Below are positions 31,126 to 31,824 of a DNA stretch of 64,000 bases, one piece after another. The stretch is from a phage. Both the position numbers and the translations under genes were made by a program. A model generated the notes under the pieces. That model was given only the letters and a program-made list of their open reading frames with translations. It searched no databases and was not told the DNA's origin. Where the stretch lies: sequence record PX104378.1; one strand, given 5' to 3'. Position 1 is the stretch's first letter; every line of letters starts with the position of its first letter.

Positions 31126-31824
31126 CTAACCACGGGTATAGTGTTCCAGAACAACGGTCAGATGAATATATTCTAATAAATCTTTCCAAAAGTCAACATC
31201 TGGTTCTTCCGGCATACCGTTTTTCTTTGCCTCTTCACGCGCGAGTTTAACACGCTCGTAGAGATCTTTCAATTCTTCCCGTACATTATCAAAGGTTCTT
31301 TCTCCTAACTTACACGCTAAAATAGAAGAACGTCGCGCGAGCGGGAATTGTAGATCACCTGTCTGATAGATTTCAAGTAGCTGATAACCAACACGCAGAG
31401 CATGAGAAAGATCTTTCCAGTTACTGAAATACTTTTCAGATTTGACTACCTGCTTTTTGAGATAGCCAGAAAAACCCCACATACCAACATGATAGAATTT
31501 ATCGCGATGTGTTCGGATGTATTCCCATTCTCTGGAGGATTCAACCAACATGTTACTAGGCGCGTGCACCATGTCAATAGCGCCGATATCGCCTTTACAT
31601 GCCAGATTGATAAACCGTTTTAGACTGAACATATTAACGTCAATATCGTCTTTGGTGTTCTTGATACCTTGACCGCTAGTGCTTTGGTCATAGTGTTCTT
31701 TCATCGATCCTAAGATAATTTCTTTAGCAGTCGGAACAAAGATACCACGATAATCTTTATCGGAATTTTCAGTATCAAGACCGTATAAGTGAGATCCGAA
31801 GACCATTTTAACCATTGTATGCAT
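31126..31824 (-). CDS. putative nucleotidyltransferase (Pol-beta-like NTase fold)
   Basis: N-terminal signature GSHLYGLDTENSDKDYRG (G-S...D-x-D) typical of minimal nucleotidyltransferases. Confidence 0.55.
   Translation of the reverse strand: MHTMVKMVFGSHLYGLDTENSDKDYRGIFVPTAKEIILGSMKEHYDQSTSGQGIKNTKDDIDVNMFSLKRFINLACKGDIGAIDMVHAPSNMLVESSREWEYIRTHRDKFYHVGMWGFSGYLKKQVVKSEKYFSNWKDLSHALRVGYQLLEIYQTGDLQFPLARRSSILACKLGERTFDNVREELKDLYERVKLAREEAKKNGMPEEPDVDFWKDLLEYIHLTVVLEHYTRG

Follow-up and report, generated by a model that had tools for sequence, protein, structure and literature searches.

Introduction

Pnkp and Rnl1 of phage T4 are the textbook case of viral RNA repair, and according to a 2008 proposal it is defeated by nucleases of the RloC type, which excise a nucleotide. 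RloC removes the wobble nucleotide and thereby creates a lesion that Pnkp and Rnl1 alone are not expected to repair (PMC2610378). Phage members of the RlaP family were predicted earlier to restore nucleotides lost to such nucleases (PMC7824862), and a December 2025 preprint that is not peer reviewed proposes that RlaP counteracts "smart" ribotoxins, RloC among them (PMC12776372).

The only family members with demonstrated activity are bacterial. According to the same preprint, the Pseudomonas enzymes PfRlaP and PaRlaP add one or two NMPs to the 3′-OH of RNA, with Mn2+ favored and with little NTP specificity, since any NTP or dATP can be used (PMC12776372). They are inactive on DNA, on protein (E. 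coli proteins) and on 3′-phosphorylated RNA, and a 3′ end mimicking that of ribotoxin-cut tRNA is favored over the acceptor end. In total E. coli RNA they labeled rRNA as well as full-length and cleaved tRNA, and they partially rescued the aminoacylation of tRNA lacking one anticodon-loop nucleotide. The crystal structure of PfRlaP has a positively charged cleft between its two domains. T4 NrdC.11 is placed in the RlaP family as well, in cluster 5, and the assayed enzymes fall in cluster 1a (PMC12776372).

The nrdC.11 gene is dispensable for T4 in the laboratory. A 2006 catalogue lists it, together with vs.6, vs.1, tk.4 and regB, among the accessory ORFs conserved in the T4-type early region (PMC1524935). 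Here we describe a compact counterpart of NrdC.11 from a phage of the Krischvirus type, in which a subdomain carried by nearly all close relatives is absent. We then consider what the nucleotidyltransferase (NTase) might do.

Results and Discussion

The gene and its surroundings

The DNA that we analyzed is a stretch of 64,000 nucleotides from a phage (PX104378.1; hereafter the window), corresponding to roughly 23.9-86.2 kb of the genome of phage GEC-3S. The NTase gene is the sole ORF at its location, and has an ATG start, 232 codons plus a stop, and the N-terminus MHTMVKMVFGSHLYGLDTENSDKDYRG. The gene, its flanking signals and its neighbors have the following positions in the window:

31126-31824, minus strand: coding sequence of the RlaP-family (PF10127) nucleotidyltransferase, the compact T4 NrdC.11 counterpart (ORF list, Pfam, phrog_388)
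31832-31836, minus strand: Shine-Dalgarno-like GAGGG, 7 nt before the ATG (direct sequence reading)
31855-31883, minus strand: candidate sigma-70-like promoter, TTGGCT, 17-nt spacer, TG, TATGAT (consensus scan only)
31877-31901, minus strand: intrinsic-terminator-like hairpin, 10-bp stem followed by a T-run, located between the GrcA-like and NTase genes
31911-32327: Gly_radical gene, GrcA-like and of the T4 vs.6 type, directly upstream of the NTase gene
29845-30267, minus strand, as the NTase gene: RegB gene, ~860 bp downstream, with three small ORFs between
28331-28786: Macro domain gene of the T4 tk.4 type

A terminator is annotated in GEC-3S at the position equivalent to the hairpin. The promoter-like element overlaps the stem of this hairpin and has no counterpart annotated in GEC-3S; it may be the start of the NTase transcription unit.

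Further neighbors include an SLT-domain gene (vs.1-type) and vs. Both the NTase gene and T4 nrdC.11 lie in the early accessory region of Straboviridae, and HNH homing endonuclease genes are frequent neighbors of the two. The immediate neighbors differ, in that the NTase gene adjoins the GrcA-like gene and the small ORFs towards regB, whereas nrdC.11 is situated between nrdC.10 and mobD. An initial annotation of this region had called attention to RegB, GrcA-like and macro domain proteins nearby, all of which are indeed encoded there, and had viewed them with the NTase as a cluster of nucleotide-modifying functions. This grouping is unsupported. Because a terminator separates the NTase gene from the GrcA-like gene and because the T4 gene order is different, adjacency provides no evidence of a shared pathway, and a functional operon with the RegB, GrcA and macro domain genes is ruled out on the same grounds.

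The 5-kb stretch around the gene is 97-98% identical to ~59 Krischvirus genomes (RB49/GEC-3S-like, Straboviridae), and the gene is intact in ~59 Krischvirus records. Comparison with GEC-3S yields a dN/dS of 0.057 (13 synonymous and 3 non-synonymous differences), and the gene is therefore under purifying selection. When the protein was used as a tblastn query, a relative was found in 1622 phage records, including that of T4, where the match to nrdC.11 consists of two pieces spread across 984 nt.

Family assignment

The sole Pfam match of the protein is PF10127, RlaP, a family titled "RNA repair pathway DNA polymerase beta family" (57.4 bits versus a gathering threshold of 23, E=2.3e-15). Residues 7-191 align contiguously with model positions 24-198 of 249. 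A PHROGs search returned phrog_388, "nucleotidyltransferase" (E=2.4e-79), and an exhaustive search with HMMER, covering 1.84 billion representatives, recovered 3675 relatives at E<=1e-3. No family was found in NCBIfam, and the PDB yielded no meaningful match by sequence, whether the query was the single protein or a 49-sequence profile. The lone match among PADLOC models was insignificant (E=0.029), which argues that the protein is neither a CD-NTase nor another known defense-system component.

The 232-aa product had initially been described as bearing a Pol-beta-type NTase signature. The ORF is exactly as described, and the Pfam and phrog_388 matches are far beyond chance. Among the families that had been put forward for it, RlaP is the one that these searches identify. 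CD-NTase finds no significant PADLOC match and no Pfam match, and the resemblance to KNTase in Foldseek searches is generic (TM ~0.4) and is not accompanied by a match at the level of sequence profiles. Membership in the RlaP family, along with the predicted catalytic competence discussed below, is well supported by these sequence comparisons and can be held with high confidence.

The likeness to the bacterial enzymes (PfRlaP, PaRlaP and others from RtcB-RlaP-RtcA operons) extends beyond membership in the same Pfam family to a contiguous alignment, a similar length (~250 aa), a common N-terminal G[SA]HLYG...SDxD signature and, as predicted by the model described below, a layout in which the NTase domain is joined to a helical domain. 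Nevertheless, the compact NTase is only ~23-25% identical to canonical RlaP and falls in a different sequence cluster from the assayed enzymes, and its gene, unlike the bacterial genes, shares no operon with a ligase.

Catalytic residues and predicted fold

The residues and regions that bear on catalysis were located by means of alignments and a structural model:

31744-31797, minus strand: hG[GS] motif and DxD, residues 10-27, GSHLYGLDTENSDKDYRG (alignments, model)
31639-31641, minus strand: codon of D62, predicted third catalytic carboxylate, in beta-strand 61-67 (alignments, model)
31564-31575, minus strand: D84-M-V-H87, a conserved DMxH motif, in helix 80-86 (alignments, model)
31138-31533, minus strand: C-terminal helical domain, residues ~98-229 (AlphaFold2 model)

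The sequence F9-G10-S11 is followed, 10 residues on, by the metal-binding D22-K-D24, which the model places at beta-2. In alignments that included T4-type relatives and a canonical RlaP (255 aa, from an RtcB operon), G10, S11 and D22 are invariant and D24 is invariant or nearly so. D62 is invariant across all alignments, canonical RlaP included, and the general layout of Pol-beta NTases suggests that it serves as the third metal ligand. D84 is invariant among T4-type relatives and is replaced by E in canonical RlaP, such that an acidic residue (D or E) is found family-wide. Within the helical domain, K137, R144 and K172 are invariant even in canonical RlaP and are probably contacts for the phosphates of RNA or NTP. 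The initial annotation had named loss of the catalytic aspartates on alignment as the observation that would count against it, and D22, D24 and D62 are all retained.

An AlphaFold2 model, generated from a 49-sequence alignment, has a pLDDT of 92.8 and a pTM of 0.88. It comprises an N-terminal alpha/beta NTase domain (residues ~1-96, with beta-1 at 2-9 and beta-2 at 23-30) and a C-terminal helical domain of roughly 130 residues (helices 98-105, 116-131, 136-155, 165-172, 178-201 and 210-229). The additional helical domain indicates that the protein is not a minimal single-domain NTase. The earlier description of it as a "minimal" NTase is thus correct as to the Pol-beta superfamily, but it does not hold in the sense of the MNT type, which consists of a lone NTase domain of about 100-150 aa, given the 232-aa length and the second, helical domain of the model. 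Furthermore, the protein matches no MNT Pfam family, and no HEPN protein of the kind found in MNT-HEPN modules is present among 10 neighboring products.

Foldseek searches of BFVD with this model retrieved many phage NTases, with TMq values up to 0.84. Searches of the PDB with this model and with a model of a T4-type relative gave generic NTase folds only (KNTase, HalB, LinB, AadA and Tam41), with TM scores of 0.26-0.50 for the compact model. Kanamycin NTase/ANT(4′) and HalB share with the phage protein an architecture in which a helical domain comes after a Pol-beta NTase domain (E 5e-5 to 1e-4), but the TM scores are only 0.39-0.50, identity is 9-15%, and there is no profile match. Their substrates also lie elsewhere, being aminoglycosides for the former and protein-primed poly-dA for the latter.

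Absence of an insert subdomain

T4 NrdC.11 (NP_049709, 336 aa) belongs to the same orthologous group (phrog_388) as the 232-aa protein, with which it is 42% identical over residues 1-153 and 51% identical over the C-terminal 88 residues. Catalytic residues and the two core domains are common to both proteins. However, NrdC.11 carries an alpha/beta insert of ~100 aa (T4 residues ~131-241) that is missing from the compact NTase, where the site can be assigned from alignments as follows:

31417-31443, minus strand: junction at residues ~128-136 (...KKQVVKS/EKYFSN/WKD...), site of the absent ~100-aa subdomain

Close relatives are nearly all 300-360 aa in length and match the compact protein in two stretches. 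Between its positions ~128 and ~136, 255 of the 267 relatives that we collected have 90-120 residues, compared with 11 in the compact NTase. In the NrdC.11 group the insert follows the first long helix of the helical domain and precedes the second. When a T4-type protein with 88% identity to T4 NrdC.11 was modeled (pLDDT 87), the insert appeared as a discrete alpha/beta subdomain, composed of helix 137-149, five beta-strands and helices 213-235, and no PDB structure found by Foldseek with this model accounts for it. Canonical RlaPs are without the insert, and the alignment of the T4 protein to the Pfam model breaks at model position 142.

The absence of the insert could in principle be ancestral or derived. 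A neighbor-joining tree of 224 core columns, rooted with canonical RlaP and evaluated with 200 bootstraps, places the compact NTase and a 57%-identical protein (P0002) deep within the insert-bearing T4-type clade. A T4-type clade containing the compact NTase, with cellular long forms outside, was recovered in 157 of the 200 bootstraps. Because the compact form nests inside insert-bearing forms in the rooted tree, its sequence indicates secondary loss of the insert. The opposite view, that the short form is ancestral, is ruled out by this nesting, by the five short forms, which are monophyletic in 0/200 bootstraps, and by their differing junctions. Judging from the sequences, comparable losses are independent and have occurred at least three times. 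The gene order of the contig that encodes P0002 (M15 endolysin, Gly_radical, an HNH gene, RlaP, small ORFs) is the same as that around the compact NTase gene, and the loss is therefore older than the divergence of the wider Krischvirus-like lineage.

Association of relatives with RNA repair genes

We examined the surroundings of relatives 25-48% identical to the compact NTase at 80 loci, taking one genome per species. Flanks of <=6 kb were searched by tblastn with RtcB and RtcA from E. coli and with Pnkp, Rnl1 and Rnl2 from T4. RtcB was found within 6 kb at 12 of the 80 loci, nine of which have it on the same strand as the relative, with gaps down to 59-363 bp. Typically there is about one RtcB copy per genome, and on this basis well below one copy would be anticipated in ~0.7 Mb of random sequence. 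At two loci, a Pnkp phosphatase domain is encoded 21-90 bp upstream of the relative.

The long NrdC.11-like RlaPs of cellular RNA-repair islands (for example at loci L022, from Nitrosospira, and L019) are 35-41% identical to the compact NTase and belong to the same tree clade. They differ from it in that the insert is kept and that RtcB, RtcA, Ro60, Hen1 and a Pnkp phosphatase domain are encoded directly alongside. The genes of L022 run in the order Ro60/TROVE, RtcB, RtcA, NrdC.11-like RlaP (323 aa), canonical RlaP (255 aa), Hen1 and AAA. RNA-repair operons therefore contain members of the NrdC.11-type clade itself, in addition to the Pseudomonas cluster that has been assayed.

Pnkp, Rnl1, Rnl2, RtcB and RtcA were searched for in the 64-kb window, and none is present. 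A gene at 39038-39502 that carries the label "RNA ligase" in the GEC-3S annotation is actually Acb1, an anti-CBASS phosphodiesterase. The 97-98% identical relative GEC-3S encodes pseT (44% identity to T4 Pnkp) and rnlA (42% to T4 Rnl1) at 127-130 kb, ~75 kb from the NTase gene and beyond the part of the genome that corresponds to the window; Rnl2 is absent from GEC-3S. Rnl1 is a 5′-P/3′-OH ligase (PMC12776372). The ends that it requires, 3′-OH and 5′-P, are those that RlaP and Pnkp would give, and for this reason Rnl1 is compatible with an RlaP product. The partner ligase of the Krischvirus enzyme would probably be Rnl1, not RtcB.

Proposed function and alternatives

In our estimation, the best reading is that the gene encodes an RNA 3′-end nucleotide "filler" of the RlaP type that works with the phage Pnkp and Rnl1, and we assign this a probability of roughly 0.55. 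RNA is likely to be the substrate of the phage enzyme. We infer that it has the nucleotide-addition activity of RlaP and a role in counter-defense; a specific role against RloC is a published hypothesis. NrdC.11-type RlaPs are obvious candidates for a phage answer to RloC-type nucleases that operates by nucleotide refilling.

If the gene product is such a filler, it would be an active, template-independent RNA 3′-terminal nucleotidyltransferase from which the insert has been lost secondarily. Two divalent ions would be held by D22, D24 and D62, with Mn2+ being the ion preferred in characterized RlaPs, and the 3′-OH end of RNA would be bound in a basic cleft where the NTase domain meets the helical domain. 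The enzyme would then add one or two NMPs, using any NTP as donor, and in this way would refill nucleotides that host ribotoxins had trimmed from cleaved tRNA or other RNA. An example of such a lesion would be the wobble nucleotide cut out by RloC-type anticodon nucleases. Presumably Pnkp would strip the 3′-phosphate before the NTase adds nucleotides, and RNA ligase 1 would seal the product. Since addition by RlaP is base-unspecific, a particular wobble base would be correctly restored only inefficiently. The constraint evident from the dN/dS value and the dispensability of T4 nrdC.11 are consistent with an accessory counter-defense gene.

Alternatively, the enzyme might add nucleotides to RNA 3′ ends for some other purpose, such as repairing the CCA of nibbled tRNAs or placing short tails on mRNA fragments of the host or the phage (for example, RegB products) and thereby altering their decay. 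The broad labeling of rRNA and of full-length and cleaved tRNA by the bacterial RlaPs, with little regard to the NTP (PMC12776372), would accommodate such a role, and RegB is encoded ~860 bp downstream on the same strand. In addition, the compact form is without the insert that relatives in RtcB operons carry. However, the bacterial enzymes favor a 3′ end like that left by ribotoxins over the acceptor end (PMC12776372), the linkage to regB is not kept in T4, and the genes linked to close relatives encode ligases and enzymes of end healing instead of RNases or decay factors. We therefore regard a tailing function of this kind as possible but rather unlikely. Less probable again, and by a wide step, is that the enzyme nucleotidylates a protein or a small molecule, either by AMPylating a HEPN-type RNase toxin in the manner of MNT or by modifying a metabolite or antibiotic in the manner of KNTase. 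The nuclease domains of PrrC and RloC are HEPN-like, and the structures retrieved with the T4-type model include that of an MNT antitoxin bound to an AMPylated HEPN toxin (E ~0.1). Moreover, the top PDB folds are kanamycin, lincosamide and spectinomycin nucleotidyltransferases (E ~5e-5, TM ~0.4). These similarities reflect only a generic fold made up of an NTase and a helical domain (TM 0.26-0.46, RMSD 7-15 A), there is no match to those families at the level of sequence in Pfam or in PDB sequence searches, and no HEPN gene is found among the neighbors. E. coli proteins, furthermore, were not substrates of bacterial RlaPs (PMC12776372).

A further possibility is that the enzyme synthesizes an oligonucleotide or nucleotide signal, as HalB (poly-dA) and CD-NTases do, which could act as a decoy against an oligonucleotide-gated defense such as Hailong. 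HalB makes oligodeoxyadenylate, which keeps the HalA channel closed (review, PMC13434031). With 217 aa and catalytic D21/D23 at the same N-terminal position, HalB is among the top PDB folds (TM 0.46-0.50), and dATP is accepted by bacterial RlaPs (PMC12776372). Nevertheless, no sequence similarity to HalB was detected, since a family profile of the compact NTase returned no HalB chain at E<=10, and the structural superposition has an RMSD of 10-12 A. No CD-NTase or other PADLOC model matches, no transmembrane effector of the HalA kind is encoded among neighboring products, and the gene context of relatives is one of RNA repair, not of defense effectors. RlaPs, for their part, require an RNA 3′-OH primer and halt after 1-2 additions (PMC12776372), so we consider the synthesis of a signal very improbable. 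A related and slightly more doubtful idea extends to NrdC.11-type phage enzymes in general, which would produce HalB-like short oligonucleotides or RNA-end tags as decoys that silence oligonucleotide-gated abortive-infection effectors instead of taking part in repair. The two points in its favor are the HalB fold resemblance and the acceptance of dNTP by bacterial RlaPs, and both sequence and gene context point to RNA repair over this use. Finally, nearly all close relatives have ~100 residues that are absent here, which might mean that loss of the insert inactivated the enzyme and that the ORF persists as a decaying remnant without function. This is the least credible of the alternatives, because the dN/dS is low and all catalytic and family-invariant residues are kept, because the model is confident and compact, with a layout and size like those of canonical RlaPs (250 aa), in which the insert was never present, and because the compact form has been kept in ~59 Krischvirus genomes and in the 57%-identical lineage. 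The independence of the comparable losses also argues against decay.

Returning to a filler of the RlaP type as the preferred function, it is possible that the compact form differs in its choice of substrate, as the insert is kept by relatives in RtcB operons. A natural 232-aa enzyme without the insert, for which a high-confidence model is available, would lend itself, as a minimal enzyme, to biochemistry and to determining what the insert contributes.

No new kind of system emerges from the finding. The NTase gene and its family assignment are already known, and it is a routinely annotated accessory gene; the GEC-3S orthologue, BN201_0099, already bears the RefSeq annotation "nucleotidyltransferase". 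Absence of the insert is the sole unusual feature of an otherwise ordinary gene, and although we found no description of the insert-less architecture in the publications consulted, it represents a minor variant. Many phage homologues of the NTase carry the wrong labels "thioredoxin" or "glutaredoxin".

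Genomic neighborhood of the nucleotidyltransferase gene

Genes for HNH homing endonucleases repeatedly adjoin the nucleotidyltransferase (NTase) gene, as is evident in T4, in the contig of a compact RlaP relative (L091), and in some Krischviruses, where an HNH insertion lies inside the 5-kb stretch surrounding the NTase (records H15 and H20). The T4 and contig examples are positioned as follows.

T4 locus (L002), 4238-5017: mobD, HNH homing endonuclease, overlapping the start of nrdC.11
L091, 3951-4547: HNH gene, between Gly_radical and RlaP

Because of this repeated adjacency, the NTase locus is suggested to be a recurrent homing site. 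Three tandem paralogous small ORFs (window 30269-31104) directly follow the NTase gene and share its strand.

30910-31104 (-): small ORF, 64 aa
30668-30928 (-): small ORF, 86 aa
30269-30607 (-): small ORF, 112 aa

These three ORFs cross-match phrog_6261 and phrog_15978, both of unknown function, and have in common an invariant C, H-L and W in the pattern ...C[SA]HL...W.... The same pair follows the compact RlaP gene in L091, whose RlaP is 57% identical to the one here.

RNA repair

Two forms of RlaP occur as tandem paralogues in an RNA-repair island of a Nitrosospira sp. contig (CAADGK010000054.1; L022, 1555-10277), one being an insert-bearing, NrdC.11-like protein of 323 aa and the other a canonical protein of 255 aa. 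RtcB-RtcA lies on one side of the pair and Hen1 on the other, and the island also carries an upstream Ro60/TROVE gene. Given this tandem arrangement, the NrdC.11-like and canonical forms are probably not redundant.

No tRNA or tmRNA genes were detected by ARAGORN in the entire 64-kb window (1-64000). If the full genome also lacks tRNA genes, then the phage would be wholly reliant on the tRNAs of its host, and tRNA repair would be more valuable.

Annotation of related genes

The product of window 39038-39502 (-) is Acb1, an anti-CBASS phosphodiesterase of the T4 57B type (Pfam PF23474, E=1.5e-51). The orthologue BN201_0127 in the RefSeq GEC-3S genome, however, carries the label "RNA ligase", which misleads searches for RNA-repair partners.

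Many phage homologues of NrdC.11 are labelled "thioredoxin" or "glutaredoxin" (e.g. PP418985, OR525701, PP658200), and some "HNH homing endonuclease". These mislabels apparently spread from the nrdC.x naming of the gene or from adjoining genes. Some Tequatrovirus-like records contain two places matching the query NTase, such as Escherichia phage HY126 (L009, 3746-4732) and LR027390 (H53). One of the two is a single-piece match with 33% identity to the query, located within a 329-aa CDS that may represent a divergent second form of the NTase.
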